A DNA stretch of 64,000 nt from a virus (IMGVR_UViG_3300028048_000056:98086-162085); one strand, 5' to 3'; shown: positions 18,843 through 50,823, numbered from the stretch's first letter. Notes: generated from the sequence alone by a model not told the origin. Numbers and translations: made by a program.

Positions 18843-20426
18843 ATGTGTCAGAGGGTTTTACCTAGAACTTCTTTCGAAGAGCGTCTTCCAGAGGGTTGGT
18901 TTTTGTCACGTCTCTATAAAGGAAACCGCATATTATATTATAATGATGTGAGGGTAGCAAGTCTCGCTGACAGTTTTGATATTGAAGCTGAAGTGACTGA
19001 GATAATCAACAATCCACCAGAAGTCGTTCAAGCTGTATTATACCAAGATGGTAAAGTATCAGCAACCGAGTTAAGTTCTAATGTTCAAAAGAAGTTAGTT
19101 AAGAAGGGTCTTATCCCTTACGAATTTGCTCTCAACTGCCTCCACAGCATAGAGAGCTGGTTATATAAGATAGTTCCTGCTAGGGCAGAGTATAACGGTA
19201 AATTCTATGTTAATAGACGTAATCGTTGGTATGATGAAGCAGGCAATTGTATCAACACGACATTCCTGTTCTTGTCTACATGGGATGCCAGAGTGCGATA
19301 TGCACAAGGAAAATGCACATTGGCTGATGTAGCCAGATACAGCTGGTCAGCTGTTCTAGAGTGTCTAGGTGATGACCACCAAAGGTTTATAAATCAGGTA
19401 CTTAAACCTAAGATGGAATTAAACCGTAAGGGCTGGGTCCTCGACGCGAAAGCAACTAAAGCTAAGAAGCTGAAGCAAAATGAGCCATGGGAGCATACTG
19501 AATTTGATTGTGCAGAGGAAATTGAAGAAGAGTACAGAGAAGATGTGAATTCTTGTTTATATCGGTATTTCTTTAGCTCGCAGAGCAATCATGTTCAGAT
19601 GTTTACCGAGGAGTGTAACCTACCAGCGTTCAAGGACATAAAAGCTCAGACAGAGGCTTATGAGAAGGATGTTCTTGCACAACTCAAGAGCATCGAGCCT
19701 CAGCTCTGTAGGTTTAAGTGGAATGCTCTATTAAAATCGCATGAACCGGTATTTGCACCTCAGATGATGTCTGCTGAAAAATGGGACGATTTCTGTGATT
19801 TGGTTCACCAGGTAGTTATCGGACAGATGAGCGGACATGAAGCTGCGTTGCACCTTGTTCACGGTGATTGGTCAAAAATCAAACGAGAAAGCAATCGGTA
19901 CGAAAAGCACATGACACAGCACGTACCGTTTTATAGTGAACGCTGGCAGAAATTGGATGCTACAAAAACCTCATTTATAGAAGCAGTTGACTACGTTCAG
20001 TCGAATATTCGTGACCTTATTACTATGGGTTACAGAGATGTCAGTAAGATAATCGTGTCATTTACATATGATGATTGCCGCTTCGCATTAAATGTAGTGA
20101 CGGGTGAGGTTAGGTACATCGGCTACTCTAATGGAAAGTTCATGTCAGATACGTGGCTTAAACTTAAACCAGAGGAGAGAAGAAAATTACTCCATGATGA
20201 TGCAGAATGGGAATATCAAGAGAAAGCGATTAAGAAGTATCGACGACTATTCTCATATCTGTATAATGTAGTCCACAAGCATTGGGACAGGGCGTGCTAC
20301 TTTGTACAGGACAGGTTGCTCGCTAAACGCAAGTATCTACGTCCTTCTTCTGGATTCCTTGATAGGATGAAAGAGAAGGCAGATAAATATATCAAATCTT
20401 TAGAAAGAAGGGTTGCAATTTGCTGA
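18843..20426 (+). CDS. large hypothetical protein, translationally coupled to dpdA
   Basis: long ORF; GAAAGAGG SD before ATG 18843; no recognisable motif. Confidence 0.7.
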   Translation: MCQRVLPRTSFEERLPEGWFLSRLYKGNRILYYNDVRVASLADSFDIEAEVTEIINNPPEVVQAVLYQDGKVSATELSSNVQKKLVKKGLIPYEFALNCLHSIESWLYKIVPARAEYNGKFYVNRRNRWYDEAGNCINTTFLFLSTWDARVRYAQGKCTLADVARYSWSAVLECLGDDHQRFINQVLKPKMELNRKGWVLDAKATKAKKLKQNEPWEHTEFDCAEEIEEEYREDVNSCLYRYFFSSQSNHVQMFTEECNLPAFKDIKAQTEAYEKDVLAQLKSIEPQLCRFKWNALLKSHEPVFAPQMMSAEKWDDFCDLVHQVVIGQMSGHEAALHLVHGDWSKIKRESNRYEKHMTQHVPFYSERWQKLDATKTSFIEAVDYVQSNIRDLITMGYRDVSKIIVSFTYDDCRFALNVVTGEVRYIGYSNGKFMSDTWLKLKPEERRKLLHDDAEWEYQEKAIKKYRRLFSYLYNVVHKHWDRACYFVQDRLLAKRKYLRPSSGFLDRMKEKADKYIKSLERRVAIC

Positions 20427-21421
20427 ATACACAGCTTTACTTTGCTGGTAGTGCACCGCAGGAAGTCGACGAGTTTCTCGTCAAGAAGGGTTACAACCGA
20501 CTCTTCTCGCAGCTGAATGACCGTTCACGTATTAAGCGTTGGATGGGTTACAAAGATGAACACCCTGACATGAAGCTGTTCGTTGACTCTGGTGCGTTCT
20601 CAGCATACACCAAGGGAAAAGAAATCGACCTCGATGACTATATCGCTTACCTGAATGCGAACGGTAGCTACTTCAATGTCATGGTTCAGGTAGACTACAT
20701 TCCTGGTAAGTCAAATGTCGTTCAAGACAGGCAGGTTTATCTCGATGCGCCTAGAATATCTTGGGAGAACTTCCTTCATATGAGAGAGCGCCTGGATAAA
20801 AGTCTGTGGGATAGATTTATTCCGGTTTTCCATGAAGGTGAGGATTTCAAGTGGCTTGAGAATATGCTGAACTATCGAGATGCTGATGGTAATCCGCTTG
20901 CCTATATTGGTATTTCACCTCATACAGAAACAACTACAGACAGACGTCTTGTATTCTGTAAGGAAGTGTTCCGTCGTATCAAGCGACTCAATCCACAGGT
21001 TAAGACGCACGGATTCGGTATGACTGCACTGAACATTCTGCAGTATATCGATTTTACATCGGTTGACTCTACGACATGGCTGAAAGGTGCAATCTATGGC
21101 ACAATTCTCGTTCACCGACACAACAAACTTGCCGCCATGAACGTAGGTGAAAGAACTACAGGTGCTTCCGACCACTTCTGCTGGCTGGGTGCTGATGCCA
21201 AGGATGAGGTTTGCCGACTAATCGAGGACGCAGGATTCTCTACTGAGAAACTCCGAAAGATTGACCCGACTCGAGAGAATGACATTCCTGACGATGGCGA
21301 ACCAGATATCACCAACAGCATTGCTATGCGTCAGATGTTCAATGCTGCCAGCATGATTCGTTATCTCGAGACTACAGATTTCCTGGGCTTACCTAAGTCG
21401 GCTCGTCGAATTGGTCTCTGA
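20420..21421 (+). CDS. dpdA: TGT-fold 7-deazaguanine transglycosylase, DpdA-like (DNA-directed by inference)
   Basis: LFVDSGAFS, QVDYIPG, IPVFH, YIGI, KTHGFG, SVDSTTW; lacks the CxCxxC Zn site of bacterial tRNA TGT; adjacent to the replisome. Confidence 0.8.
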   Translation: MLNTQLYFAGSAPQEVDEFLVKKGYNRLFSQLNDRSRIKRWMGYKDEHPDMKLFVDSGAFSAYTKGKEIDLDDYIAYLNANGSYFNVMVQVDYIPGKSNVVQDRQVYLDAPRISWENFLHMRERLDKSLWDRFIPVFHEGEDFKWLENMLNYRDADGNPLAYIGISPHTETTTDRRLVFCKEVFRRIKRLNPQVKTHGFGMTALNILQYIDFTSVDSTTWLKGAIYGTILVHRHNKLAAMNVGERTTGASDHFCWLGADAKDEVCRLIEDAGFSTEKLRKIDPTRENDIPDDGEPDITNSIAMRQMFNAASMIRYLETTDFLGLPKSARRIGL

Positions 21422-21435
21422 TGCGTCTATAGCAC

Positions 21436-21469
21436 AACTTCGTTTTTCACGAAGTTGTTGTGTTATAAT
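21436..21469 (+). promoter_or_regulatory. phage promoter AACTTCG-N21-TATAAT
   Basis: conserved copy; the box is part of a palindrome ACAACTTCG...CGAAGTTGT. Confidence 0.8.
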
Positions 21470-21562
21470 AGAGATACAATGTTAGTCACGCACGTTACCG
21501 CGGACCGTGTAGTGGAGTACATTGGGTCTTGCTTACCATTGTAAATCAAAGACAAAAGTAAG

Positions 21563-21606: not shown

Positions 21607-21634
21607 GATTTTGAAATCAGAAAGGAAGATTTTT

Positions 21635-22510
21635 ATGGCACGCTATACAGCGGAAGAGTCCAAGTCCATGGAGTACCAGGGCGCCGAGACTTTCAGAATT
21701 GAAAAGGATGGCGGCAAAGCTCAGGTCGTATTCCTCTACACAGATGAAAAGAGCGTTGACGGCTGGTCTTGTCACAGACTGCCTGGTGCGAACTATTACA
21801 CCTACACTGTTGACTGTCCGAGAGGCCCGAAGGACGAGGTTGATATATGTCCAGCATGCAAGGCTGGTGAGCCTCTGTCTACTCGTGTGTTCGTCCTCAT
21901 GCTTGATGTCACATCAGGTAAGGTTATGATTTGGGATAAACCTGCATCATATCGAAAGGAAATCACAAGCCTTATGAGCTACTACAAACCTCTCTATAAG
22001 CAGAAGTTTGAAATTACTCGTGAGGGTACGGGTCTCAATACCAAGTATCGCACAATGCCTATCGGTGATAGCGGTCTTACAGAAGAGCAGTACAAGGAGT
22101 TCCTTGATAAGGCGAACGAGGTATGCAACGACTATGTTCGTCCTATCGATAAGTACGATGAAATCAAGGCACGCTCACTGGCAGCTCAAGCAGAGCAGGT
22201 TCAGGTTGACGCTCAGCAGGGACAGCAGCCTCCTCAGCAGAATGCTTGGGGTCAGAATACGCCTCCTCAGGGTCAGGCTGGTTGGGGTGCTCCAGCTCCT
22301 CAGCAGCAGTGGGGTGCTCAGAATCAGGCTCCTCAGCAGTGGAATCAGCCTCCTCAGGGTATGCCACAGAATCAGCCTCCTCAGGGTATGCCGCAGCAGG
22401 CAGCTCCTCAGAATCAGCCAGGTGGCTGGGCTCCTCAGGGTCAGGCTCCCCAGCAGAATGGCTGGAGTTCAACTCCGAACGGTGCTTGGCAGAATAACCC
22501 GCAGAACTAA
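21635..22510 (+). CDS. single-stranded DNA-binding protein (gp32-like, putative Zn site) with Q/P/G/W low-complexity tail
   Basis: H...C...CPAC, GKVMIWD, ITREGTGLNTKY; first gene of the replication operon. Confidence 0.75.
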   Translation: MARYTAEESKSMEYQGAETFRIEKDGGKAQVVFLYTDEKSVDGWSCHRLPGANYYTYTVDCPRGPKDEVDICPACKAGEPLSTRVFVLMLDVTSGKVMIWDKPASYRKEITSLMSYYKPLYKQKFEITREGTGLNTKYRTMPIGDSGLTEEQYKEFLDKANEVCNDYVRPIDKYDEIKARSLAAQAEQVQVDAQQGQQPPQQNAWGQNTPPQGQAGWGAPAPQQQWGAQNQAPQQWNQPPQGMPQNQPPQGMPQQAAPQNQPGGWAPQGQAPQQNGWSSTPNGAWQNNPQN

Positions 22511-22530
22511 TCAATAAAGGAGTAAGATAG

Positions 22531-23580
22531 ATGATTTGTAAGAAGACTAACCTGGATACAGCTCTCGCAGCTGTATCCGAAGGTTTAACACCTAACTCAT
22601 ACGTTATCCTCGCACAGACTGTTACCTTGCACGTTGCAGACGGTAACCTGTATCTTATCACTGAACCTGATGACGGTGAGGTTTGGTACAGTGCGAAGGT
22701 GGGTGCAACTACTGAAGCGTTTCCAACAGTTTCTGTCGACGGTGCAAAGTTCAGCAAGGCAATCTCCTACTGCGGAGAGTCTGTCGAGCTCACCGCTACT
22801 GAAGACACACTTATTATCAAGAACGAAAAGGGTACTCTGAAGCTCCCAATCCTCGTCGATGATGCAGGTCAGCCGGCAGTTCATGAGTTCTTCACTCACA
22901 CCGGCAATCAGCTTAAGGTTGACCACCTCAACCAGATTAAGATGCTCACTGGTACACTTTCTAAGACAATGGACAGCATCGCAGAGCGTTGTATCTATAC
23001 CGATGCAGACTGTTCATTTGCTACAGATGATATCAACATCAGCAAGGGTGACTCACTTATCAACGAGCCGATTCTTCTGTCAGCTCGTATGATTAGCTAC
23101 TGCACAAAGCACTCTGATGTTCAGATTTATGATGCTGGTGCAGAGTTCTTCTGGTTCATATCTGAGGAGTCTGGCTCATCTGCAAGATTCTCAAAGGTAT
23201 TCCAGGATTTCATTCCTCAGTTCCCTCTTGAGAACCTTAAGCAGGAGTTTGCCAATGAGGTAAAGAATTCAGTAACTGTCGATATGGCATCTTTCCTCAA
23301 CTCTATGCAGTTCCTTGCTATCGTGGCGGACTCAGCTAACGATTATAGCGTTACGGTTTGTCAGGAGACTCCTGACGAGCTCATTCTCAAGTGTGCAGAC
23401 AGCATACAGAAGGTTCCTTGCAAGTCCATCAAGGGTGAAGGACCTTGGTCTATCGAGGTTGACTGTCTGAGTGCTAATGCACGTTTTGCACCTTATGACG
23501 GCATGGTTCAGCTCGATGTGTATGAGAGTCAGCTTGCCTGTGTAGGACCTGTGACTACTTCTATCGGTCTTATCTCCTAA
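22531..23580 (+). CDS. dnaN: DNA polymerase III beta-clamp-like sliding clamp
   Basis: 349 aa acidic protein with clamp-like three-domain pattern (FATD, FPLENL); upstream of clamp-loader genes. Confidence 0.6.
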   Translation: MICKKTNLDTALAAVSEGLTPNSYVILAQTVTLHVADGNLYLITEPDDGEVWYSAKVGATTEAFPTVSVDGAKFSKAISYCGESVELTATEDTLIIKNEKGTLKLPILVDDAGQPAVHEFFTHTGNQLKVDHLNQIKMLTGTLSKTMDSIAERCIYTDADCSFATDDINISKGDSLINEPILLSARMISYCTKHSDVQIYDAGAEFFWFISEESGSSARFSKVFQDFIPQFPLENLKQEFANEVKNSVTVDMASFLNSMQFLAIVADSANDYSVTVCQETPDELILKCADSIQKVPCKSIKGEGPWSIEVDCLSANARFAPYDGMVQLDVYESQLACVGPVTTSIGLIS

Positions 23581-24056
23581 TGGCAGATAATCTCGGTAAG
23601 GTCTGGGAAGACATCGTCGAGGAGTGGTTGCTTCAGAACAAAATCTGCTACGACCGCATCCCCGACCAGATGTCGGGTAGAAAAGGTTCTAAGAATGTGT
23701 GCGATTATGACGCATACATATACCCGCACATTTATTACATAGAATGTAAAGAGTGTGCTTCCCCTAGATTCAATATGCTCCAGAACATTGATGAATATCA
23801 ATGGATACACATGCTGGAGAAGGACTTGATTCCGGGAGTAAGGGCTGGGTATGTAATCTGGATGTCAGGAGAGCAGAGAGCTTTCTGGGTATCACCACTC
23901 ACATTGGACTTGTATTACTCCGCGGGTAAGAAGTCAATCACGGTGGATGATCTGGAAGTAAGCGGTGTGGAACTAAAACTCTACATGAAGCGAACTTGCT
24001 GGCATTTAGAAACGTGCTTAGATGTAGTTGAAGAATATTTGGCACAGGTGAACTGA
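23580..24056 (+). CDS. recU: RecU-like Holliday junction resolvase
   Basis: GKVWE, RIPD, CDYD, YIECKE, I.EYQ. Confidence 0.75.
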   Translation: MADNLGKVWEDIVEEWLLQNKICYDRIPDQMSGRKGSKNVCDYDAYIYPHIYYIECKECASPRFNMLQNIDEYQWIHMLEKDLIPGVRAGYVIWMSGEQRAFWVSPLTLDLYYSAGKKSITVDDLEVSGVELKLYMKRTCWHLETCLDVVEEYLAQVN

Positions 24057-24084
24057 ACACATCGGTTCACCTGTGTTTTATTTT
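24043..24084 (+). terminator. intrinsic terminator after recU
   Basis: CACAGGTGAAC/GTTCACCTGTG stem followed by TTTTATTTT. Confidence 0.75.
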
Positions 24085-24091
24085 CGCCCGC

Positions 24092-24153
24092 ACTGCTTAA
24101 TTGCTACAATCATAATACATACAATGGTTATGCGTAATCACTGCATTTAAGCA
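24092..24153. repeat. intergenic palindromic element, copy B
   Basis: ACTGCTTAATTGC...GCATTTAAGCA. Confidence 0.65.
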
Positions 24154-24161
24154 AATCACGT

Positions 24162-24195
24162 TACTTCGGTTACAAAGTTCAAAATCGTGTATAAT
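24162..24195 (+). promoter_or_regulatory. phage promoter TACTTCG-N21-TATAAT
   Basis: conserved copy upstream of dnaX. Confidence 0.75.
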
Positions 24196-24228
24196 ATGTA
24201 TATATAATAAACACCAAGGAGGTAAGAT

Positions 24229-25230
24229 ATGCGAAATCTTGCTGCAATATATCGACCTACTCGACTAGATGATGTAGTCGGTCAGGATTCTGTGAAGAAG
24301 GTACTGCGTGCTCAGCTCGACAATAAACCCAAAGCTGCTCAGCTTTTCGTAGGCAGTGCAGGAACTGGTAAGACGACTTGTGCTCGTATATTTGCTCATG
24401 AGTTAAATGGTCAATCTAACATCTACGAAATCAATGCAGCTGATAATACAGGTGTTGAAGGTGTGCGTAAGATTATTTCTGACGCTCGTCACAAACCTAT
24501 CGGCACAAAGTATAAGATATTCATTCTTGACGAGTGTCACATGCTGACAGTTCAGGCGTGGAACGCTCTGTTGAAACTGGTTGAGGAACCACCGGATTCT
24601 GTTGTTCTGTTGTTCTGTACCACCGACCCTAGAAAAATCCCGAACACGATAACATCACGAACACTCCGGCTTGATTTTTCTCGTATCGACATAGATGCGG
24701 TCACTGACCGACTTCTCTGGATTCTAGAGCAGGAGCATATAACCGGTGTTCAGCGTGAACCCTTGAGGTATATCGCGCAGCTCGCAAATGGTGGTATGCG
24801 TGATGCCATCACCATGATGGATAAGGTTCTGGGTTATGGTGTAGATATCAATTTCGACGTTATCAACACCGCTCTGGGACTTGTAGGCTTCGATGTGCCT
24901 ATGAACATTCTTAAGGCACTCTATGACCATGACTTCAAAGGACTGGTAGATGTCCTCGATGATATCAACAGAAGAGGTGTCGATTTCAAAGCGTGGGTAC
25001 AGGACTTCCGTCGTTTCGTTCTTCAGGCAGTTGAGCTTCAGCTTGGTGTGAAACCTGAGGATGTAGCTTTGCCTAAAGACATCAGCAGTAACCTGGCTAC
25101 ACTTCCTCAGGATGGACGTCTGTTCCAGACTCTGTGCTCCTTAGACGATTTGGTTCAGCTTATCATTATGGAGCCTGACCCCTACACGCTGGTTAAGGTA
25201 CATTTCCTCCGAATTGCAGGTGATTTCTAA
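24229..25230 (+). CDS. dnaX: DNA polymerase III gamma/tau-like clamp-loader ATPase
   Basis: YRP..LDDVVGQ, GSAGTGKTT, EINAA, ILDECHML, NALLKLVEEPP, GGMRDA. Confidence 0.93.
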   Translation: MRNLAAIYRPTRLDDVVGQDSVKKVLRAQLDNKPKAAQLFVGSAGTGKTTCARIFAHELNGQSNIYEINAADNTGVEGVRKIISDARHKPIGTKYKIFILDECHMLTVQAWNALLKLVEEPPDSVVLLFCTTDPRKIPNTITSRTLRLDFSRIDIDAVTDRLLWILEQEHITGVQREPLRYIAQLANGGMRDAITMMDKVLGYGVDINFDVINTALGLVGFDVPMNILKALYDHDFKGLVDVLDDINRRGVDFKAWVQDFRRFVLQAVELQLGVKPEDVALPKDISSNLATLPQDGRLFQTLCSLDDLVQLIIMEPDPYTLVKVHFLRIAGDF

Positions 25231-26000
25231 TGGATTATATCGGACAGGAAAAGTTGATTGAAAGTTTATCTTCTACGAATGCTCGTGCAATGCTTATCCA
25301 AGGTCCTGCTCATTCTGGTAAGAAAACTCTTATCAGAAAGTTATATAAGGACCTTGGGTTGTATGTCTATGAGGTTTCAGGTACAGTATCAGATTTTCGA
25401 GAGACCTTAGAGTTTATTAAAACTCAGACAAAACCGATTATGTATCTCATTCCTGATGTAGACAAACTACACTCAGGTATACAAAATCTTCTTTTGAAGA
25501 TACTTGAAGAGCCACCAATGCGTGCTAGATTCTGTCTAACCGCAAGTAATTCAATTTTACCTACGATTAAATCTAGATGCGTGTGCTATATCATGGAGCC
25601 GTACACACCTGAGCAGATACAAGCCCTTCTTTGTGACTCAGAGAGGTTTGTGGTTCAGAAATATATAGGTGTAATTAGTCACGCGGTGACCACCCCAGGT
25701 CAACTCTATCTTCTGGTAGGCTGGGGAAATTACGACATTCTGTCAGGTATGATTGACCAGATGTTGGATATTCAGTCGTCTATAACTCAACCACTGGCTG
25801 TGGTTTTGAATAAGGCGAACATACTCAGCAAGTTTATGAAAGAAAATAATGTCGACTTCTACGTGTTCTATCTGTTGGCGAGAGGTATGCACTCAGATAC
25901 AGTTAGCTATACTATACTGACACAGAACTTGCATGAACTTGACCGATATATCATGTGCTATTTCTATGCAGAATTGTGGAAGGAGGTTGCGTGTAAATGA
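25230..26000 (+). CDS. clamp-loader delta'-like subunit
   Basis: IGQE, GPAHSGKKT, QNLLLKILEEPP, ILPTIKSRC (SRC motif). Confidence 0.8.
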   Translation: MDYIGQEKLIESLSSTNARAMLIQGPAHSGKKTLIRKLYKDLGLYVYEVSGTVSDFRETLEFIKTQTKPIMYLIPDVDKLHSGIQNLLLKILEEPPMRARFCLTASNSILPTIKSRCVCYIMEPYTPEQIQALLCDSERFVVQKYIGVISHAVTTPGQLYLLVGWGNYDILSGMIDQMLDIQSSITQPLAVVLNKANILSKFMKENNVDFYVFYLLARGMHSDTVSYTILTQNLHELDRYIMCYFYAELWKEVACK

Positions 26001-26941
26001 CCATAACTGAATTTAGGGAGCGGATGAAGACGCCTCCTGATTATTTTATTATCATGGCAAATGACCATGATTTGAGAACCTTATATCTGAAACAGTTCTG
26101 TAAGGCGCATAACTGCGAACCTAAGTTCGTAGATACAATCGATTGGAAATCCAAAGGACGTATGATTACCACAAATCAGGTGCTGGTGCTCACAGACGAC
26201 CTGGATGTTATCAGTGCACCTAAGCCTGAGTATAAGCAGTCCGGACGAAAGATTGTGTTTCTGTACACATCAATCAAGAAGATTTCGGAGTCCACTCTTG
26301 AGTTCTTTGGAGGCAATGCACTCACTATCGAGGACTTAACCTGGGCACAGGCTTCGAACATTCTGACAAAGAAAAAGCTGAGTCCGTCAATAATCGAGCA
26401 CATGAAGAATAATGTCGACACACCTGGTAATATGCGTCTGTTCGGCTTACAGATTCTTGACCTCGCAGCTTCACTGGGCATGTCAGATACTGATGTATTC
26501 AAGATATACTTCAAACCATGGATGCAGTCTGAAATTAGTGAAGAACCTGGTCCTTTCTGTGACGCCCTTCTAGACGGTGATTTTACATTTATCTTTACCT
26601 ATCTAGAAGCTCAGCGTGGTAATGAATTTTTCGTATATGCTTCTATCTTTAGATGGTTGGAGCAGATAATGCGTTTCGTATCCTGCGGTAATGACTATTG
26701 GAATAAAGGTGGTTTGGTTAAAGCTGTATACACCAATTTTCAAGGTCGAGGTCTGCAGAATGTTCCCTGGGTTGAGTGGATTTACCTATATAAGGTAGGG
26801 TTGAAATTCAGAAAACAGATTAAGGTGAGTGAACGTGATGCACTGACCGGACTGGAGGTGTATGTATGTATCATTTTACGAACCCTTCTGGACAACCGAA
26901 TAATAATACCGGATACTGCAAATACTGCGGGCGCCCACTGA
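25997..26941 (+). CDS. putative clamp-loader delta-like subunit
   Basis: size and position after dnaX and delta'; only weak sequence resemblance. Confidence 0.45.
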   Translation: MTITEFRERMKTPPDYFIIMANDHDLRTLYLKQFCKAHNCEPKFVDTIDWKSKGRMITTNQVLVLTDDLDVISAPKPEYKQSGRKIVFLYTSIKKISESTLEFFGGNALTIEDLTWAQASNILTKKKLSPSIIEHMKNNVDTPGNMRLFGLQILDLAASLGMSDTDVFKIYFKPWMQSEISEEPGPFCDALLDGDFTFIFTYLEAQRGNEFFVYASIFRWLEQIMRFVSCGNDYWNKGGLVKAVYTNFQGRGLQNVPWVEWIYLYKVGLKFRKQIKVSERDALTGLEVYVCIILRTLLDNRIIIPDTANTAGAH

Positions 26942-27081
26942 AGAATCACGGTTCTATTAATCAAGATGCCGGTGATGTGTGCTTGGCAAAGCATCGTCGT
27001 ACTCGTGTGCGGAGAATAGGAGAAAAGGTAGGTGTGCAGAATGGACCTGACAAACCAGAGTCAGATACAAATTCAGAATAA
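26866..27081 (+). CDS. small Zn-finger protein (DUF6011-like)
   Basis: CKYCGRPL....S....GDVC; GGAGGTG SD. Confidence 0.6.
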   Translation: MYHFTNPSGQPNNNTGYCKYCGRPLKNHGSINQDAGDVCLAKHRRTRVRRIGEKVGVQNGPDKPESDTNSE

Positions 27082-28015
27082 GATATTTACATTAGGTAGT
27101 CCGGTAACACACGCTGACACGTTAGACCAGCTTTTGTATGCGTTTCAGCAAATGGGTGTTACTGAAAGACCGATTGTTATCATAAATCCGGTGGGTGACG
27201 CTATTCCTGACCTCGCTAATCTTCTCGAGAATTACATCGAGAATGCTATGCAGGGTTCATACTCAGCTCCTCGTACCACCTATCTGTTTCAGGATTATAC
27301 CGATGAGCAGATTACCGAGTGGGCAAATTCTCAGTATAAGGCAGGCGGAGCATCGTTAGATTACTGGATTGAAACCGGTAAAGCTATCAGGGAGCAGAGT
27401 CATCTTAAGACTGAGCTGGATAGGGTAAATGCTCGTCGAGAAGAACTCTGGAAGCAGCATTGTCTTCGTCCAGAATCTAATGAAGGCTCAGACGAGTATG
27501 CAAATCTCACCTACAATGTGGTGCCTCAGATTGAGGCAGCTATCAAGAATGTGACTGATGCAATGGGTAAGATTCCGAAGGACTTGAATAATGGGTCTGA
27601 ACCAACTCAATCAGTACCCGTTGAAAATCCTGTTGAGAGTGTTGAAAACCGTGTGGAATCACCTTCGGTAAGTGTTGAAAACCATGTTGAGAATGTTGAT
27701 ACTACATTAGAGATGTCTGGTACAGGAAAGCCTGACATCATGCTATGCAGCACTTCTCGTCTTATAATGCCGTTATCCATTGCAAAGCAGATTTCAGATA
27801 GTCCGGATAATCAGCTGTATAAGAAACAACAGCAGCAGGAGGTACCGGGATATGTCACCGTACCGATTGAATATCTAATTGCTCTAGGTATAAAGCTGTA
27901 TCCCGACGGTGTACCGGTTGTATTTACTAAATCTGGTAAGTTCCGTCGTGTAGGGGTGTCACAGGTTAGTCCAATTGTGTCTTCGTATTGGTATCCTACA
28001 CCTCGATACAAGTAA
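27041..28015 (+). CDS. hypothetical protein with internal VEN repeats
   Basis: long ORF; likely ATG 27041. Confidence 0.65.
   Translation: MDLTNQSQIQIQNKIFTLGSPVTHADTLDQLLYAFQQMGVTERPIVIINPVGDAIPDLANLLENYIENAMQGSYSAPRTTYLFQDYTDEQITEWANSQYKAGGASLDYWIETGKAIREQSHLKTELDRVNARREELWKQHCLRPESNEGSDEYANLTYNVVPQIEAAIKNVTDAMGKIPKDLNNGSEPTQSVPVENPVESVENRVESPSVSVENHVENVDTTLEMSGTGKPDIMLCSTSRLIMPLSIAKQISDSPDNQLYKKQQQQEVPGYVTVPIEYLIALGIKLYPDGVPVVFTKSGKFRRVGVSQVSPIVSSYWYPTPRYK
27619..27702 (+). repeat. seven TGTTGA(A/G)A-like 9-mers resembling DnaA boxes or iterons
   Basis: copies at 27619, 27631, 27640, 27652, 27673, 27685, 27694. Confidence 0.6.
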
Positions 28016-28047
28016 CTTCGTAAACTATTATACCACTATTGTATAAT
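28014..28047 (+). promoter_or_regulatory. phage promoter AACTTCG-N21-TATAAT
   Basis: conserved copy. Confidence 0.8.
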
Positions 28048-28191
28048 TTTAATGTCACTTATAGTGACACAACGTGTGCGAGGTTTTGCTACGTGGTTGT
28101 GTTTTTAATAACTGTATATGTTATAATGTGGAACCTGTAGCAGAACCTTAGCAAAACACACGCAAAATTGAGAGTAACAAGGGGTGCGTGT

Positions 28192-28614
28192 ATGAGAAAT
28201 AATTTACCTCAACCGTACTGGTCACACGTTCTAAATAGATTTCCTAAAGAAAGCAATCTGCTAGCAGCGGCAGCTGGGTATCTTGAAATGAGAATTAAGA
28301 AGAATAAAGAGCTCAGTATCAATGAATGGGATGCTTGCCTAGACGAGGTTCTTAAGACATATGACATAGCTGACCCGACTAAACCAGCGTCTCGAGTTCG
28401 AAAGTTGTCTGTGAAGAACACTATCACTATTCCAGAAATAACTTACCTGTTTCTAACTGCAACTGCTAGGAAATGGAATCATATTGTGTTCACGTCTGAA
28501 CAAGATAAGATGTACGCGAACATATCGTACTACCAGGACCCGTACTGGAATGAAATCAAAAATAATCCCAAGACATTAGCAATACTTAGAGAGGAGCTAG
28601 GTAATGATGAATAA
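28192..28614 (+). CDS. hypothetical protein, possibly initiator-related
   Basis: precedes the DnaC-like gene; likely ATG 28192. Confidence 0.55.
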   Translation: MRNNLPQPYWSHVLNRFPKESNLLAAAAGYLEMRIKKNKELSINEWDACLDEVLKTYDIADPTKPASRVRKLSVKNTITIPEITYLFLTATARKWNHIVFTSEQDKMYANISYYQDPYWNEIKNNPKTLAILREELGNDE

Positions 28615-29149
28615 TCAGATAGATATTCTTCCGACACTTATTCGCAAGGCAGGGCTTCCTGAGAAGCTGACTGAATATCCGAATGAGGATTACATCAGAC
28701 CAGCTATTAAGCAGGTGTGTCAGAACATTGCAACCTTTGACGGTGTGATTTTACTGAACGGCTTGAAGCGAGGGAAGACAACGAATGCCGCTATGATACT
28801 TATGTCGTATCTTAATTCTCGTAGATATATCATGGATACCCAGAATGTAGGTCTGTATATATCAGTAAATCAGCTCTGTTATCAGAACCGAACTCAGGAT
28901 AGATTTAATCGTGACAATGAGGTTCAGGCTATGGTGCGTCGAGCGGCGGCAGCAAGATGTCTGGTGCTCGATGGTTTGTTTTCTTACCTAACTCAGATAG
29001 ATGACCTCATGCTTCAGTCTATCTATGATGCTAGACAGAATAAGTCCTGCATTACGGTAGTGACTACACCAATGACTGACCCTTTGAATTGTGCAGGTAG
29101 CATTATGTATAGAATAGCAAGAGATGCAAAGATAAAGGAGGAATTCTGA
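28604..29149 (+). CDS. DnaC/IstB-like AAA+ helicase loader (divergent)
   Basis: ILLNGLKRGKTT, LVLDGL, IYDAR....TVVTT. Confidence 0.6.
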   Translation: MMNNQIDILPTLIRKAGLPEKLTEYPNEDYIRPAIKQVCQNIATFDGVILLNGLKRGKTTNAAMILMSYLNSRRYIMDTQNVGLYISVNQLCYQNRTQDRFNRDNEVQAMVRRAAAARCLVLDGLFSYLTQIDDLMLQSIYDARQNKSCITVVTTPMTDPLNCAGSIMYRIARDAKIKEEF

Positions 29150-30318
29150 TGGCATTAACTCTTAGCCAGGAAGTTGCTTTTAAGCGCATTATGTCCTGGT
29201 ACAACAATCGTGAAAGTGAGGTATTTAAGCTCGGTGGTCCGGCTGGTAGTGGTAAGAGTTATCTTATCGCATTGGTTGCTGAGCAAATTGGCGTAGAAAA
29301 TTGCCTGCTTATCACACCTACCGGCAAGGCAGCGAACAACCTGATTAAGGCATCACTGCCTGCTCGTACCATTCACTCGCAGATTTATCACGTTCAATCA
29401 GAGAGTTCTGAAGATGGTGCGATTGATTTCGAAACGATGGGTGACAACGAGTTTAAGAATCTGGAGCTGATGCTTCAGCAGAGTCACGACCGTGGGTATG
29501 ACTTTAGCGGTGAAGAGACTCGTTTCTGTCTTAAGGAAGAGCTGGATGCTAATGTGAAATGTATCATCATAGACGAAGGAAGTATGGTTGGCGGTAAACT
29601 CTTGAATGATGTGCTGTCATTCGGTATTCCGACTCTTCTGGTTGGCGACCCTAATCAGTTACCTCCTGTCAATGACACGACTGTATTCACCAAGTGCGAT
29701 TATTATCTGACAGAAATTGTCAGACAGGCTCAGGGTAGTCCGGTCATCTGGTTATCTCAGGAAGTTCTTCAGGGAAGGCTCAAGACAGGCGTATTCGGCT
29801 CATGTATGGTTCGAAAAGGACCTGTGTCTGACAGTGAGCTTTGCTATGCTGACATTATTCTGACAGATACAAACGTATCCAGAGGTAATCTGAATGACCG
29901 ATTAAGGGCACTTGCCTTGGATTTCAGGTCACGCTCTAAGCCACTCAATGTCGGTGATAAGATTATCTGTCGTACCAACACCTCAATCTCCTCGTCGGAA
30001 GGTTATACTCTGACTAATGGAGCTCAGGGTGTTATCACGAAGGTAAAGCATGCCAATAACTCGTATTCTTTGGTTGACCTGGTTATGGAGACACCTGATA
30101 TTGGTACATTCAGCTTCATCGGTACGACACGACCTGAGCTCTTTCCTGCACACGTCAGACCTCCTAAAATTGAGTACGGTTATGCCTTGACAGTTCACCT
30201 TAGTCAAGGTTCTGAATGGCAGAACGTCATTTATCAGCAGTCCTCCATGATGAAGAAGTCTGCGATGTATACGGCTATCACCCGAGCCAAGGAGTCGGTA
30301 CTTATTGCATTAGACTAA
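29149..30318 (+). CDS. RecD/Dda-like SF1B helicase
   Basis: GPAGSGKS, TPTGKAA, IIDEGSM, GDPNQLPPV, YALTVHLSQGSEW, YTAITRA. Confidence 0.93.
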   Translation: MALTLSQEVAFKRIMSWYNNRESEVFKLGGPAGSGKSYLIALVAEQIGVENCLLITPTGKAANNLIKASLPARTIHSQIYHVQSESSEDGAIDFETMGDNEFKNLELMLQQSHDRGYDFSGEETRFCLKEELDANVKCIIIDEGSMVGGKLLNDVLSFGIPTLLVGDPNQLPPVNDTTVFTKCDYYLTEIVRQAQGSPVIWLSQEVLQGRLKTGVFGSCMVRKGPVSDSELCYADIILTDTNVSRGNLNDRLRALALDFRSRSKPLNVGDKIICRTNTSISSSEGYTLTNGAQGVITKVKHANNSYSLVDLVMETPDIGTFSFIGTTRPELFPAHVRPPKIEYGYALTVHLSQGSEWQNVIYQQSSMMKKSAMYTAITRAKESVLIALD

Positions 30319-30333
30319 TTAGGAGGTGTTTAG

Positions 30334-32530: not shown

Positions 32531-32539
32531 TCGTTGATT

Positions 32540-39775: not shown

Positions 39776-39786
39776 GGTGATTTATC

Positions 39787-44696: not shown

Positions 44697-44730
44697 AACT
44701 TCGTGTATCACGGTTGTTGTATTGTATAAT
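44697..44730 (+). promoter_or_regulatory. phage promoter AACTTCG-N21-TATAAT for the que operon
   Basis: conserved copy. Confidence 0.8.
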
Positions 44731-44881
44731 GTAACATATAACGAAACACACAGAATGCGTGTGTTATGCTACGGTTCTGCCGTAGGTATCGTGTTTTGTT
44801 GTTATGTTATATACAGTATACAACCACGTGGTATGCGTTAGCGTGCTATGTAAAGGAGTTGGTGTTTATGAATGTATAATA

Positions 44882-44963
44882 ATCGAGTAGAGTTCCCCCT
44901 CGATAAAAACGGGAACAGTGAGTAAGGTATCCCCTTGCTAAAGTTAAAATCGATACGAAAGGA
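44882..44963 (+). ncRNA. candidate preQ1-I-like riboswitch, two tandem H-type pseudoknots
   Basis: ATCGAG/CTCGAT stem with loop GTTCCC pairing to GGGAAC after AAAAAC; second unit AGTAAGG/CCTTGCT with GTATC/GATAC next to the SD; sits upstream of yhhQ and the que genes. Confidence 0.55.
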
Positions 44964-44972
44964 CTAATAGGT

Positions 44973-45875
44973 ATGAAGTCAAAGATTCAGAAAGAAGAGT
45001 CATGGGGCAAAGCTCCTGGGCTGTTCGCTGTGCTAATGGCTATCAACGTCGCAAGCTACGCTCTGTGCGTACCGATGATGGTTAAGATTCTGGAAGCAAA
45101 GGAAACCAGTATCTTTTCTATTCTGGGTATGCTGATTTTCACAGTGTGCGGTATGCTGCTGGCGGGTAAGTTGTCGGCAAAAGTGAACAAGGTGGTTGCT
45201 TATGCGTGCGGTGCTCTTCTAAGTGCAGCGGGAATCGTCTTGTGCGCGCTTGATGCAGTAGATGTTCTGTATATACCGGGACCTACGGTTATGGCAACTG
45301 CAACAGGTGATTCTCTATTTTTTATCGCAACTTACATCGTCTCTGATGTATTCTCAGAAGTGTTCGGTTACAGAGCATCAAGACTGTCTGGCAACACTTC
45401 GGCTATTTTTGCTGTTGTAGCAGCTTTAATCGCGAAAGCGTTTACCGGTATACCCGTGCCTGAGTATGCAGAAGCGAATGAATCCGCATTTGATTTCATC
45501 TACGGTGGTGGTATTTATGTTACCATTGTCGGCATCTTGATTTACGCCGTAGGTGATTTCCTCAATGATAAGCTATTTGCTTATATTAAGAAAAAGAAAC
45601 CCGGTGAAGGTTTTTCAAGCTACTCACTCCGTTCAATCGGTTCGAGTATCTTAGGTAAGACTGCTGATTTGGGTCTATTCACACTCCTGGTAATGATACC
45701 GTTCTCAATCCCGAGCTTCTGCTCAGTTCTAGGAATGGACTGCTGGGGTATGGATGCAAAGAGTATAGCAGGCAACTTCTTGCTTGGTATTGCATTCCAG
45801 ATTACGGTGGAGGCATTGCTGTCACCTGTATCTTATAAAATTGCAACTGGCGTTAAGAAGAGCCTAGAATCATAA
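44973..45875 (+). CDS. yhhQ: queuosine precursor transporter (YhhQ/QPTR family) with extra N-terminal TM helices
   Basis: multi-TM; FFIATYIVSDVFSEVFGYRASR, GDFLND.LF, RSIGSSILG. Confidence 0.75.
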   Translation: MKSKIQKEESWGKAPGLFAVLMAINVASYALCVPMMVKILEAKETSIFSILGMLIFTVCGMLLAGKLSAKVNKVVAYACGALLSAAGIVLCALDAVDVLYIPGPTVMATATGDSLFFIATYIVSDVFSEVFGYRASRLSGNTSAIFAVVAALIAKAFTGIPVPEYAEANESAFDFIYGGGIYVTIVGILIYAVGDFLNDKLFAYIKKKKPGEGFSSYSLRSIGSSILGKTADLGLFTLLVMIPFSIPSFCSVLGMDCWGMDAKSIAGNFLLGIAFQITVEALLSPVSYKIATGVKKSLES

Positions 45876-45896
45876 TACATGAAAGGACGATTTATC

Positions 45897-47138
45897 ATGA
45901 ATAATTCAAAGATGGAAACTGGTGTGCCTGATATTTTCAGCACATCTAAGACTGTAACCGCTAAGGGGCTTGACACAGCTCCTACAGAAGAGCAGTATTC
46001 TTCTGCTCATTATCGCTATGACCTCCCTCAGGAGCTCATCGCACAGGAGCCGCTTCCTGATAGAGCGAGCGCACGTTGTCTTATCGTTGATACGACTGTA
46101 GAAGCGAACCAGGATGGAGTAGCAGTATCACTCGAAGACAAGCACTTCACAGACATCTGTGACTACTTCAACGCAGGTGATGTGCTTGTACTTAATAACA
46201 CGAAGGTTATTCCAGCAAGAGCGTTTGCTTATAAGAAAGGTAAACAGCCATATAGTATCTCTGCCATTGAAGATAATACTGTCGAGATTTTGTTCGTTCA
46301 GTATCAAGGCGGCTCTACCTGGAAGGCAATGATTAGCAAGCCACAGGAAATTGGTACTGTTCTCATTCTTAACGGAGCTGACGACGCAGAAATTACAATC
46401 AAGAGCTGCGACGATGAGGGTGAAGTATTTCTTGACTTCGCTAACTCAACTGGCTGGGATGTTCTCGACAAAATCGGTGAGACTCCGCTTCCTCCTTACA
46501 TTCAGGGAAGAGGTCATTCTGAGTCCTATATTTCTGAAATGTATAACACGGTGTATGCCAAAGAAAGAACTTCCTGCGCTGCCCCTACGGCAGGATTGCA
46601 TTTCACCACTGAACTTCTCCAGGCACTCAAGGACAAAGGAGTTAGAGTCAGAGAGGTTACGCTTGATGTCGGCCTTGGGACTTTCAAGCCAGTTGTTGTC
46701 AAAGACTTAAGAAATCACGCAATGCACACCGAGCACTGTTTCTGCCCTGTCAATGTTATCAACGACATTAAGCAGGCACATGCTGAAGGTCACAACGTGG
46801 TTGCTGTTGGTACAACCTCACTCCGTACACTCGCATCCATTCCTGAGGAAGTATGGGAAAAGCCCGAGGATTTCTCAACAGATACCAGCATCTTCATCTA
46901 CCCTGGTGCAGAAACTGCTAAACGTGTCGATTGCATCGACGGTCTTATCACCAACTTCCATGCACCTGAGACAACTCTTATGATGCTCGTTTCTGTTGTT
47001 GCAGGTTACGATGAAATCATGGCAGCATACAAGCATGCCGTTCAGAAGAGATATCGCTTTATGAGCTTCGGCGATGGTATGCTTATCAAGAGACACTCTT
47101 GGCATGAAGCCGGAGAAGGCGAAGCAGAGGAGGCATAA
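45897..47138 (+). CDS. queA: SAM:preQ1 ribosyltransferase-isomerase QueA (divergent)
   Basis: [69 protein letters not shown]. Confidence 0.95.
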
Positions 47139-47140
47139 TC

Positions 47141-47650
47141 ATGGAAGGCAGAAACAAAGAAGAACTTGCAGGCGTTAGCTTGCTCGGTAACCAGAATACC
47201 AAATATAAGTACGACTACGACCCGTCTGTGCTGGAAACATTCGTGAACAAGCATCCTGAAAACGATTATGTCGTTACCTTTGATGCGTATGAATTCACTT
47301 CGCTCTGCCCTAAGACCGGTCAGCCTGACCTCGCAAAGATTATCATCAGCTATATACCGGCGGAGCAGATGGTGGAGTCCAAGTCACTCAAACTCTACCT
47401 GTTCAGCTTCCGCAATCACGGAGACTTCCATGAGGATTGTGTCAATATCATCATGAAGGACCTGGTTAAGGTGATGCAGCCGAAATACCTTGAGGTACGT
47501 GGTATCTTTGCACCTAGAGGTGGTATTGCAATCTTCCCGTTCTCCACATACGTTAGCCTTGACCACCCTGAGTTCAAAGACCTTGAAACTCAGAGACGTC
47601 TGGCAGTTCTCCAGTCCGCAGCTGAAAGGAAGGTGACATATGATGCCTAA
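47141..47650 (+). CDS. queF: NADPH-dependent preQ0 reductase QueF (type I)
   Basis: [13 protein letters not shown], QueF motif [26 protein letters not shown]. Confidence 0.95.
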
Positions 47651-48338
47651 GGCACTCGTTCTTAGCTCTGGTGGTGTTGATAGCACCACTTGTCTGGGCT
47701 TGGCAGTACACGAACTCGGTGCTGCTAATGTAGTATCCGTATCAATGTTCTACGGTCAGAAACACAAGAAGGAGCTCGAGGCAGCTCAGAAGCTTGCTGA
47801 GTATTACAACATCAAGCACTATGAACTCGACCTCTCCGTCGTTTTTGCACAGAGTAATTGCCCACTTCTCGGTCATTCTACTCAGGAAGTTCCTGAAGGT
47901 GACTACGCTGACCAGATTGGCAGAAGTGAAAATGGTATGGTCGCAACCTACGTTCCATTCCGAAATGGTATGTTCCTCTCAGCAGCGGCATCTCTCGCAT
48001 CCTCGCTGTTCCCGGATGAGGAGGTTACCATCTATATCGGTGCTCACGCAGACGATGCAGCTGGTAATGCTTATGCAGACTGCTCTGAGAACTTCATCGA
48101 CTCAATGAACGACGCAATTTTCATCGGCACTTATGAGAAGGTGTCCATCAAGGCACCGTTCGCAAACTCTAATAAGGCTGAGGTCGTTGCTAAAGGACTC
48201 GAACTCAGAGTTCCATATCAGTACACCTGGAGCTGCTATAAGGGCGGCGACAAGCCCTGCGGTAAGTGCGGCACCTGCATCGACAGGGCAAAAGCATTTT
48301 CGGCTAATAATGCGGTAGACCCCGCACTGGAGGGTTGA
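47640..48338 (+). CDS. queC: 7-cyano-7-deazaguanine synthase QueC
   Basis: SGGVDST, YGQKH..EL, TYVPFRN, TWSCY...PCGKCGTC..R. Confidence 0.96.
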
Positions 48339-48341
48339 ATT

Positions 48342-49535
48342 ATGGACAATGAATTTGCCGTTTCGCCTGAAGAGATTGTTAACCGGAATTTCGTACCGGA
48401 AGCTATACAAGGAACCCCGTTGTTCTGTAAAGCAGGTGAGACTCGTAGGATACTCGAGTCTCACCTAGACGAATTGCAGAAGTTGATAGAGGAAGAACAT
48501 TTCACATACATTGAGGTGGCTAAATACTATTACCTGAAGCTGGGTAAGTTGATGAAAACCTGGGATGTAGGTGACGTAGCACGTTCGCATCGATTTGTCA
48601 ACATCAATGGTTCGCTTAGAAAGAAGGGTGAAAATAATCCAGCTATTCGACCGGAGGTGCGTGAGTCTATCCGGCGTACTGTTCAGCAGCGCTGGGAAGA
48701 AGGTTGTTATGCAGACCGACCTGTAACTTTGCGAAAGGACCTGACCAAGCAATATCAGAAAGACGAGAATTGGTCACCAGCTGAACACTACCGGGAGAAA
48801 TATCTGTTCTACCATCCCGACCTTGTTTGTGAGCATTGTGGAAAATCATTAGTAGATGAGAAATTTAATATCCATCACATCGACGAAGACCACAAGAACT
48901 TTCTTCTCACAAACCTAGAAAAACTCTGTATCCCTTGTCATCAAGCGATGCACATTCGCAGACGTATGCTTCCGTTCGTAACTGTTCAGGTTACACATGA
49001 GATTCAGTATAGCCATCGTCTTCCTGACTATCCAGGAAAGTGCTATTTTCCACACGGACATAGGGGAGTTCTGACGCTACAGGTACGCCGTCGAATTGAC
49101 CCCGTTACCGGCTTCGCTGTAGATTTCAAAGAGCTGAAGCGGGTTGTTCAGGAAGAAGTTGACGCTGTTCTCGACCATGAATACCTGAACAACCATATGG
49201 AGAATCCAACTACTGAATTTACCGTACTTTGGCTGTGGAACAAGATAAGTGACCGAGTTAAGGGACTCGTGGCTTTAAGTTGGGCAGAAGGCTCTGCAAC
49301 CTCTTGTACAATTACAGCTAAAGATGTATTGCAAGCGGCTGATGCAGGGTGGGTAGAGAATGAATGGATACCTCAGGAGTTTCGGTTAAAGCGAGCAGCT
49401 ACTATCTTGCTGGAGTCTGATTATCTGGACGGTTGTGATATAGACACACCAGATGATTATACGATTACTACCAATCTGAGCTCAGATGAAGATTGGCAGT
49501 GGTTCATCGATTTGATAAAAGGAGGTAAACTTTAA
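48342..49535 (+). CDS. queD: HNH endonuclease-QueD fusion
   Basis: CEHCG...IHHIDEDHKN...NLEKLCIPCH (HNH), then SHRLPDYPGKC..PHGH, DF.ELK, LDH.YLN, NPTTE (QueD). Confidence 0.85.
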   Translation: MDNEFAVSPEEIVNRNFVPEAIQGTPLFCKAGETRRILESHLDELQKLIEEEHFTYIEVAKYYYLKLGKLMKTWDVGDVARSHRFVNINGSLRKKGENNPAIRPEVRESIRRTVQQRWEEGCYADRPVTLRKDLTKQYQKDENWSPAEHYREKYLFYHPDLVCEHCGKSLVDEKFNIHHIDEDHKNFLLTNLEKLCIPCHQAMHIRRRMLPFVTVQVTHEIQYSHRLPDYPGKCYFPHGHRGVLTLQVRRRIDPVTGFAVDFKELKRVVQEEVDAVLDHEYLNNHMENPTTEFTVLWLWNKISDRVKGLVALSWAEGSATSCTITAKDVLQAADAGWVENEWIPQEFRLKRAATILLESDYLDGCDIDTPDDYTITTNLSSDEDWQWFIDLIKGGKL

Positions 49536-50242
49536 TGGGACAGAAAACATTACCGGTATCAGAAATATTCTACAGCATTGACGGCGAGGGCGCTCGTACC
49601 GGCGCGCCTGCAATCTTTATTCGTCTGTTCGGCTGTAATCTTAAATGTACCTACTGTGACACGAAATACGCATGCTACAAGCAGGAAGGTGTTATCAGTT
49701 CTAATGACATGACAATCGACCAAATCGTCGAAGCAGTCAAGACATATGAACCTTGCAAGTGTATCACACTTACTGGTGGCGAGCCACTTATCCACCCTGC
49801 AGCATGTGAGCTGGTTACAGCATTGAGAGAAAATGGCTACTGGGTAAATATCGAAACCAATGGTTCAATCGACCTGGAACCGTTCATCGCTGAGCAGGAT
49901 AGATTCGGTCCTAAGAAGAGTTCTATGGACTACTTCTTCACTATGGACTGGAAATCAATCTCATCAGGTGAATCTACCATGATGTGCAAGTCTAACCTAG
50001 ATTTACTTGAAGCAACCGATGTTCTTAAGTTTGTGGTTGGTAGTGATGATGACCTTGACCAGATGAAGAAACTTCTTAAAGATTATCCTGACATCGACGC
50101 TCAGATTTATGTCAGCCCGGTATGGGGTGAAATCGCTCCTGACCACATCGTCGAATTTCTTCTTAAAAATAAGCTGGTGTATGTTAAGATGCAACTTCAG
50201 CTTCATAAATTAATCTGGTCACCGGACAAGAGAGGTGTTTGA
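49535..50242 (+). CDS. queE: 7-carboxy-7-deazaguanine synthase QueE (radical SAM)
   Basis: [43 protein letters not shown]. Confidence 0.95.
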
Positions 50243-50244
50243 TA

Positions 50245-50823
50245 ATGAAACAGATAGATACCGAAGCAATCCAGGAAGCTGTCAAGACAATCCTTGTTGC
50301 ATTAGGTGATGACCCTGACCGTGAAGGACTCAAGGACACCCCTAAGCGTGTGGCTAAGATGTATGCCGAAGTGTTCGAGGGTATGTGCTATACCAACGAC
50401 GAGATAGCTGATATGTTCAATAAGTGCTTCGAGGAAGGTGCTACAGGTGACCTGGTTACTATTGCAGACATCCCGATTTTCAGTTACTGTGAGCACCATC
50501 TTGCCTTGATGTACAATATGAAGGTCCATGTCGGATACCTTCCAAAGGGTAAGGTAATCGGGCTTAGCAAGGTAGCTCGTATTGCAGATATGGTGGGTAA
50601 GCGTCTTCAGCTTCAGGAACGCATTGGCGCAGACATCGCTGAGGTTCTGGAGAAGGTACTGGGTACCGATGACATAATTGTCGTAATTGAGGGCGAGCAC
50701 TCTTGTATGACTGCTCGTGGTATTAAGAAGCCCGGAACCAAAACTCGCACTGCAACCTTGAGAGGTGTGTTCAAGACTGACTCAGACCTCCGCACAGAAT
50801 TCTATAACCTGATTAATCAGTAA
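50245..50823 (+). CDS. folE: GTP cyclohydrolase I
   Basis: REGL.DTPKRVA, SYCEHH, GLSKVAR, RLQLQER, HSCM..RG. Confidence 0.96.

Follow-up and report, generated by a model that had tools for sequence, protein, structure and literature searches.

A probable DpdA-type DNA modification system that may have recruited QueA in a phage genome from IMG/VR

Introduction

Can QueA, an enzyme of tRNA queuosine synthesis, be put to work on DNA? The question is raised by the virus IMGVR_UViG_3300028048_000056, an IMG/VR record of 162,085 bp with a completeness estimate of 93%, in which one stretch of 64,000 nucleotides (bases 98086-162085, hereafter the window) encodes both a DpdA-type 7-deazaguanine DNA transglycosylase and QueA. 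An earlier note on this DNA had named dpdA, folE, queD, queE, queC, queF, queA and a precursor importer, all of which were found where it had placed them. The gene content points to a DpdA-type 7-deazaguanine DNA hypermodification system that may have recruited QueA, and the candidate product is a queuosine-type base never reported in DNA. A dPreQ1-type modification of the phage DNA is judged highly probable. For the further step, in which QueA would act on preQ1 already borne by DNA and give a deoxy-epoxyqueuosine-type base, the chances appear about even.

Two groups of related phages were used for comparison. Clade A comprises close relatives of this phage, of which 8 IMG/VR genomes were compared, and clade B is a second, deeper QueA subclade on related phage contigs, whose proteins are mostly 30-50% identical to those of this phage. 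We infer an anaerobic Firmicute host, since the genome encodes an anaerobic ribonucleotide reductase with its activase (NrdD/NrdG) and a clostridial-type QueE, and its nearest homologues among isolate phages belong to phages of Clostridium, Streptococcus, and Bacillus.

DpdA and the replisome

The proposed base exchange depends on the following gene and its neighbours.

20420..21421, plus strand: DpdA-type 7-deazaguanine DNA transglycosylase (Dp-1 DpdA homology, phrog_887, TGT fold)
21611..32530, plus strand: replisome block with SSB-like protein, sliding clamp, RecU, clamp-loader subunits, SF1 and DnaB helicases, and primase (Pfam and PHROG matches)

The product of 20420-21421 aligned with DpdA of Streptococcus phage Dp-1 at 37% identity over 98% of its length (E 3e-56) and matched phrog_887 (E 5e-46). 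No match to PF01702, the family of canonical tRNA-guanine transglycosylase (TGT), was obtained at E<=0.01, nor was there any NCBIfam or PDB sequence match to TGT; in the comparison of DpdA with tRNA TGT that the earlier note had called for, the protein groups with phage DpdA. An AlphaFold2 (AF2) model (predicted local distance difference test score, pLDDT, of 89) has the TIM-barrel fold of the TGT superfamily. A Foldseek search with this model placed bacterial, archaeal (ArcTGT), and human TGTs and the bacterial DpdA 7ui4, a DNA preQ0 insertase, among the top matches (E ~1e-6, probability 1.00), with 10-16% identity to the matched TGT structures. Residues D56 (DSGAF; D56-S-G-A) and D216 (VDSTTW; D216-S-T) were invariant across 24 DpdA homologues; their motifs resemble the DSGGF and nucleophile-Asp motifs of TGT, and the two residues are a candidate pair of catalytic aspartates. 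The protein is very likely to exchange G in phage DNA for a 7-deazaguanine, as predicted from these similarities. Furthermore, dpdA is co-oriented with the replisome genes, which come after it. The initial description of a TGT-fold, DpdA-like gene adjoining the replisome is thus borne out by the AF2 and Foldseek results for the fold and by the Pfam and PHROG matches for the replisome.

The que operon

The genes for preQ1 supply and QueA lie 24 kb away from dpdA. Positions 44973-50823 form one tight operon of seven genes, separated by gaps or overlaps of a few bases, in the order YhhQ-QueA-QueF-QueC-(HNH)QueD-QueE-FolE.

44697..44730, plus strand: phage promoter module (AACTTCG, ~20 nt, TGnTATAAT) upstream of the que operon
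44973..45875, plus strand: YhhQ/Vut_1 queuosine-precursor importer (PF02592, 1.9e-18, above cut-off)
45879..47138, plus strand: phage-clade QueA, an S-adenosylmethionine (SAM) ribosyltransferase-isomerase (PF02547, NF001140, TIGR00113)
47141..47650, plus strand: unimodular NADPH-dependent QueF, preQ0 to preQ1 (TIGR03139, 160 bits vs cut-off 87)
47640..48338, plus strand: QueC (PF06508, 1.8e-54; TIGR00364 passed)
48342..48965, plus strand: HNH endonuclease domain reading in frame into QueD (PF01844, several HNH PHROGs)
48966..49535, plus strand: QueD (CPH4 synthase), replaced allele (PF01242, 2.2e-22; CxxxHGH motif)
49535..50242, plus strand: QueE, clostridial type (TIGR03963, 2.9e-71; Radical_SAM domain)
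50239..50823, plus strand: FolE, GTP cyclohydrolase I (PF01227, 8e-67; TIGR00063 passed)

QueF contains the catalytic Cys56 in SLC56PKTGQPD, the NADPH motif E79-SKSLKLY, and the [13 protein letters not shown] motif. The NADPH-type motif of QueF has been described as E(S/L)K(S/A)hK(L/Y)(Y/F/W) (PMC10516641), and the assignment to the true NADPH type holds on the catalytic Cys, the ESKSLKLY motif, and the passed TIGR03139 cut-off. The importer matched TIGR00697 at 5e-9, which is under the cut-off of that family. The start of QueA is probably at 45897. No MetK was found.

The promoter module upstream of the operon occurs in 8 copies in the window vs 0.01 expected, including one at 3769-3802 on the minus strand, ahead of a glycosyltransferase gene described below. 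Between the module and yhhQ lies a leader of ~240 nt with hairpins (44731-44972). An Rfam search of this leader and of the whole window matched no family, preQ1 riboswitches included.

The history of queD differs from that of its neighbours. The HNH domain (residues 1-208) reads into QueD from M209 (48966) with no stop between them, in a joint open reading frame at 48342-49535. This domain was found at queD in 0 of the 8 close relatives, and QueD itself shares just 29-31% identity with its counterpart in seven of them, with no match in the eighth (L006), whereas the flanking genes are 80-99% identical. The absence of HNH from the relatives and the low QueD identity against such conserved flanks point to replacement of queD through a homing-endonuclease-linked event. 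In clade B, on a contig of P0161, an HNH domain is fused instead to FolE (gene 6024-7295, 423 aa); homing endonucleases therefore appear to have entered different que genes in different lineages.

A phage-specific clade of QueA

The identification of QueA is secure. The protein matched PF02547 at 3e-104 (349 bits), scored above the curated equivalog cut-offs of NF001140 (364.9 vs 324) and TIGR00113 (337.7 vs 267), and matched the structure of Bacillus subtilis QueA, 1yy3 (E 8.6e-72). The core QueA motifs ([43 protein letters not shown]) are all invariant across phage and bacterial sequences.

Close homologues are common in related phages, with ~100 clade-A QueA clusters (at 90% identity) that are 80-94% identical and occur on 150-166-kb contigs. 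Clade-B QueAs are ~50% identical to those of clade A, and the closest bacterial QueAs, at ~45% identity, are without the first ~40 residues. In a maximum-likelihood tree obtained by a short search, 23 of 23 sampled phage QueAs formed one clade (Shimodaira-Hasegawa-like approximate likelihood ratio test, 100) whose stem measures 0.85 changes per column; outside it fell the 81 bacterial-type QueAs, a set that includes QueAs at prophage borders in IMG/VR. The phage clade shares an N-terminal extension with an invariant D18-I-F-S21 (DIFS) as well as small insertions. Its replacements G231T, H263D, and L362A fall at sites 100% fixed in the 81 bacterial QueAs; E149K and Q223N are also replaced (sites 96-100% fixed in bacteria), as are D218I, M202T, and A373V, with the changes fixed in the phage clade. 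IMG/VR QueAs beyond the eight relatives were found at contig ends and grouped with bacterial QueAs, and in isolate phage records the QueA matches were only ~40% identical, mostly in unannotated fragments or large bacterial-looking records.

QueA is under strong purifying constraint. The ratio of nonsynonymous to synonymous substitution rates (dN/dS) was 0.035-0.05 against relatives, with dS near saturation, and in nearly all comparisons no other pathway gene had a dN as low. The clade-A genome that diverges most has a QueA of 84% identity, vs ~60% for DpdA, QueC, and QueE. The separate clade, the replacements, and the low dN/dS indicate that this is a working QueA that matters to the phage and whose constraints differ from those on bacterial QueA. 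Judging from its sequence, it is not a recent acquisition by the phage.

Linkage of QueA to DpdA in related phages

A survey of dpdA and queA in related phages, as the earlier note had suggested, found both genes in every contig long enough to judge, and the two adjacent in one lineage. QueA and DpdA were present in 8 of 8 clade-A genomes, with operon order conserved. In clade B, QueA was on the same contig as DpdA in the three contigs checked (one 41-kb contig, L094, and L095). The usual clade-B layout is DpdA-QueF-QueC-QueD-QueE-FolE-YhhQ-SSB-clamp, with QueA elsewhere, after SbcCD. L094 and L095, which represent one clade-B lineage, have the order DpdA-QueA-YhhQ, and queF, queC, queD, queE, and folE were not found within ~10 kb upstream or 30 kb downstream. 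This lineage is likely a salvage version of the system, in which the retained core would consist of importer, DNA transglycosylase, and QueA.

Several local variations were observed. In L002 (9550-10004) only ~450 bp separate a baseplate gene from QueA, with no YhhQ match there and QueA retained. L003 (11188-12397) has an insert of ~1.2 kb separating QueA from QueF, whose alignment covers just 114 of 169 residues. In clade B, L106 encodes a protein of 124 aa that has a hairpin domain of the Acb2/Tad1 type (3592-3966) between DpdA and QueF; this fold occurs in anti-defence nucleotide sponges. An HD-domain phosphohydrolase follows QueA in clade B, preceded in one contig by a Sequestin-domain protein, and an L094-type contig carries a NADAR-domain gene ahead of SbcD (L011 11173-11628; L009 11182-11817; L096 15838-16293).

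Absence of tRNA-type TGT, reductases, and GUN tRNAs

The phage does not appear to encode the remainder of a tRNA queuosine pathway. The claim that the window has neither a tRNA-type TGT nor a tRNA gene stands, as both searches were empty, and so does the claim that it has no queG or queH; canonical TGT (PF01702), QueG, and QueH were likewise not found in the genome as a whole or in five complete relatives. The whole 162-kb record contains six tRNAs (Leu x3, Pro, Gln, and Ile), none with a GUN anticodon, so that the rest of the genome holds neither the tgt nor the GUN tRNAs that had been proposed as a test. The tRNA-Ile was called by ARAGORN with an unusual anticodon, AAT, at genome position C1:23124-23201, outside the window.

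Proposed pathway

From family membership, FolE, QueD, QueE, and QueC would convert GTP to preQ0 and QueF would reduce preQ0 to preQ1, with import through YhhQ supplementing the precursor supply. DpdA, by family and by its homology to the Dp-1 enzyme, is predicted to swap guanine in phage DNA for preQ1. In the central step, QueA would transfer the ribosyl moiety of SAM to the aminomethyl nitrogen of DNA-borne preQ1 and isomerise it, yielding a 2'-deoxy-epoxyqueuosine-type base. Because no phage QueG or QueH is present, the epoxide would be the end product unless a host reductase acts on it. Protection from host nucleases has been shown for other 7-deazaguanines, and a similar protection of the phage DNA is the likely benefit here.

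Alternative roles for QueA

Several points weigh against a DNA role for QueA. The modification may be sparse, since Dp-1 DNA contains only 3389 dPreQ1 per 10^6 nt, or ~1.7% of G (PMC6884629). The phage QueA passes the curated tRNA-QueA cut-offs and its catalytic motifs are all standard, and an unchanged tRNA substrate is therefore possible. To our knowledge, QueA acts only on RNA, in the synthesis of tRNA queuosine. QueA is remote from DpdA in most clade-B contigs, and the host probably has a TGT that would load phage-made preQ1 onto host tRNA, creating the classical QueA substrate. The family scores and motifs, the known tRNA substrate, and the separation from DpdA in clade B also favour the main and serious rival, in which QueA serves host tRNA as an auxiliary metabolic gene: the DNA pathway would stop at preQ1, host TGT would load phage-made preQ1 on GUN tRNAs, and QueA would form epoxyqueuosine (oQ), then converted to queuosine (Q) by host QueG or QueH, tuning NAU/NAC decoding during infection. 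NAU makes up 48-57% of the phage Asn, Asp, His, and Tyr codons, and the heavy use of both NAU and NAC would fit such tuning; codon usage does not discriminate between the DNA and tRNA hypotheses. This role is at odds with a phage that has no TGT or GUN tRNA of its own. Furthermore, a host that loads preQ1 on tRNA normally has its own queA, which would leave the phage copy superfluous, although in nearly every comparison no pathway gene has a lower dN. The long stem, the N-terminal extension, and the replacements at bacterial-invariant sites indicate altered constraints, and in the L094 type the DpdA-QueA-YhhQ arrangement, where no synthesis genes are seen nearby, connects QueA with DpdA and not with preQ1 overproduction. 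Taken together, a host-tRNA role is possible rather than probable.

QueA could instead work before insertion or on another small substrate, such as free preQ1 base or nucleotide (perhaps from the phosphoribosyltransferase described below), the bulkier base then being inserted by DpdA or entering DNA via the nucleotide pool. Eukaryotic TGT inserts the full queuine base, a conserved type-I phosphoribosyltransferase follows the que operon, and a changed substrate is suggested by the replacements at QueA sites that do not otherwise vary. However, use of a free base or nucleotide is not known for any QueA, the phosphoribosyltransferase is only inconsistently found close to the que genes in clade B, and characterised DpdAs insert preQ0 or preQ1 (PMC10516641), which together make this route quite unlikely. 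The remaining alternative makes QueA a passenger without function that came from the queA-tgt region of a host. Bacterial queA sits at many prophage borders in IMG/VR and capture is therefore easy, but a dN/dS of ~0.04, catalytic motifs that are all intact across two deep phage subclades ~50% apart, and a nearest bacterial QueA that is only ~45% identical leave this extremely improbable; QueA as a decaying passenger is effectively refuted by the conservation data.

Glycosyltransferases and other candidate accessory genes

If QueA acts on DNA-borne preQ1, its product would carry hydroxyls, and two glycosyltransferase (GT) genes in the window, not counted in the earlier note, are candidates for their further modification. 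The remaining accessory features are given with them.

2817..3740, minus strand: GT-A glycosyltransferase paralog 1, candidate DNA-base glycosyltransferase (phrog_842, 1.2e-6, weak; AF2 model)
12988..13947, minus strand: GT-A glycosyltransferase paralog 2 (35% identity to paralog 1)
18681..20426, plus strand: gene without assigned function, 581 aa, 7-bp overlap with the start of dpdA (position conserved)
50977..51960, plus strand: type-I phosphoribosyltransferase, 327 aa (PF00156, 1.3e-9)

The AF2 model of paralog 1 (pLDDT 94) has a GT-A fold, and TET-associated glycosyltransferases are among its best viral structural neighbours. The family comprises ~130 representatives, in which D100-D101-D102 (DDD, a DxD-type motif) is invariant or nearly so. 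Members match GT2 and the TET-associated glycosyltransferase (TAGT) family PF20691, the latter in 5 of 45 members; the window protein itself has no Pfam match, and paralog 1 gave no tblastn match against isolate phages. Both paralogs are kept in L094 at ~40% identity, and relatives at ~30% identity occur among the replication genes of other related phages. No ThyA-family hydroxymethylase and no C5-methyltransferase, and thus no hydroxymethyl-pyrimidine pathway, was found in the genome; the only hydroxyl-bearing base predicted from gene content is therefore the QueA product. The two paralogs may add a sugar to the hydroxyls of the epoxyqueuosine-type base, a role for which the models and gene content are suggestive only, and the acceptor could be a molecule other than DNA. 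Counting against a DNA acceptor, TarP-like wall-teichoic-acid enzymes match the paralog model equally well, and no TET partner was found for the paralogs, although the control for the Tet_JBP search was silent and the result is no evidence of absence. The full combination would have DpdA insert preQ1, QueA form the epoxy-dihydroxycyclopentyl ring on it within DNA, and at least one of the two GT-A paralogs attach sugar to the hydroxyls of that ring, leaving virion DNA with a sugar-decorated queuosine-type base; at present this seems rather unlikely. Eukaryotic tRNA has mannosyl- and galactosyl-queuosine, of which such a base would be the DNA counterpart.

Overlapping the end of paralog 1 by 4 bp is a gene for an AP_endonuc_2 / xylose-isomerase-like TIM-barrel protein (1978-2820, minus strand). 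The protein is unusually conserved, at 60-66% identity in clade B, and could be an Endo IV-like abasic-site repair enzyme or a sugar-modifying enzyme. The phosphoribosyltransferase has weak matches to HGPRT, APRT, and PRPP synthetase; it comes after FolE here and in seven of eight relatives and also occurs in clade B. It might, speculatively, salvage the guanine freed by DpdA or the adenine freed by QueA. The 581-aa protein encoded ahead of dpdA had no match in Pfam, PHROG, or the protein Atlas. A homologue (31% identity) lies upstream of DpdA in L094, with one ~200-aa gene between them, and genes of similar size occupy the place upstream of DpdA in L105 and L106.

Comparison with known systems

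Literature searches turned up no paper that pairs QueA with DpdA and none describing deoxyqueuosine (dQ) or deoxy-epoxyqueuosine (d-oQ) in DNA. We know of eight 7-deazaguanine derivatives in phage DNA, all with only small groups on C7. In the 2019 survey of Hutinet et al., no analysed virus encoded QueA, QueG, or QueH, and dQ was not detected (PMC6884629), and the 2023 paper describing four further 7-deazaguanine derivatives does not mention QueA (PMC10516641). If QueA does work on DNA, its product would be the largest 7-deazaguanine adduct yet among natural DNA bases, QueA would be the second tRNA-modification enzyme, after TGT, to cross to DNA, and with it as a SAM-dependent tool DNA could be given a reactive epoxide or diol handle. 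Phages of this group abound in metagenomes, as seen from their ~100 QueA clusters on 150-166-kb contigs, and the base, whatever its nature, therefore bears on the conflict of phage and host in anaerobic communities and on how readily such DNA can be sequenced and cut.

The closest characterised DpdA, at the 37% identity given above, belongs to the Dp-1 module (DpdA, FolE, QueD, and QueE as well as QueC and QueF), which produces dPreQ1. The two systems have the same genes for preQ1 synthesis, QueF being of the bacterial type in both, and both come from Firmicute phages, but QueA is present in this phage and there is none in Dp-1. Dp-1 was not among the matches when a phage collection was searched with the window QueA, nor was it with GT paralog 1. 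The GT paralogs resemble the TET-associated glycosyltransferases (PF20691) and the T-even beta-glucosyl-HMC-alpha-glucosyltransferase (phrog_842) in their GT-A fold, DxD-type motif, weak profile links, and early or replication gene setting; unlike in those systems, no ThyA-family or C5-methyltransferase partner was found for them.

With the bacterial tRNA queuosine pathway (TGT, QueA, and QueG/QueH), the phage system shares the QueA family and the genetic linkage of QueA to a base-exchange enzyme of the TGT superfamily. It departs from that pathway in that the exchange enzyme is a DNA-type DpdA, no reductase accompanies it, and QueA belongs to a separate clade with an N-terminal extension and altered invariant residues. 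The nearest precedent in logic is provided by the systems in which DpdA2 and DpdM yield mdPreQ1 (Cellulophaga phage phiSM and Vibrio phage VH7D) and DpdA3 and DpdN yield fdPreQ1 (Flavobacterium phage immuto 2-6A) (PMC10516641). In these systems DpdA inserts preQ1 and a dedicated enzyme decorates the same exocyclic aminomethyl nitrogen in DNA, with a methyl group in the case of DpdM and a formyl group in the case of DpdN (PMC10516641), whereas the decorating enzyme here would be a QueA homologue, predicted to add a C5 epoxy-diol carbocycle from SAM.

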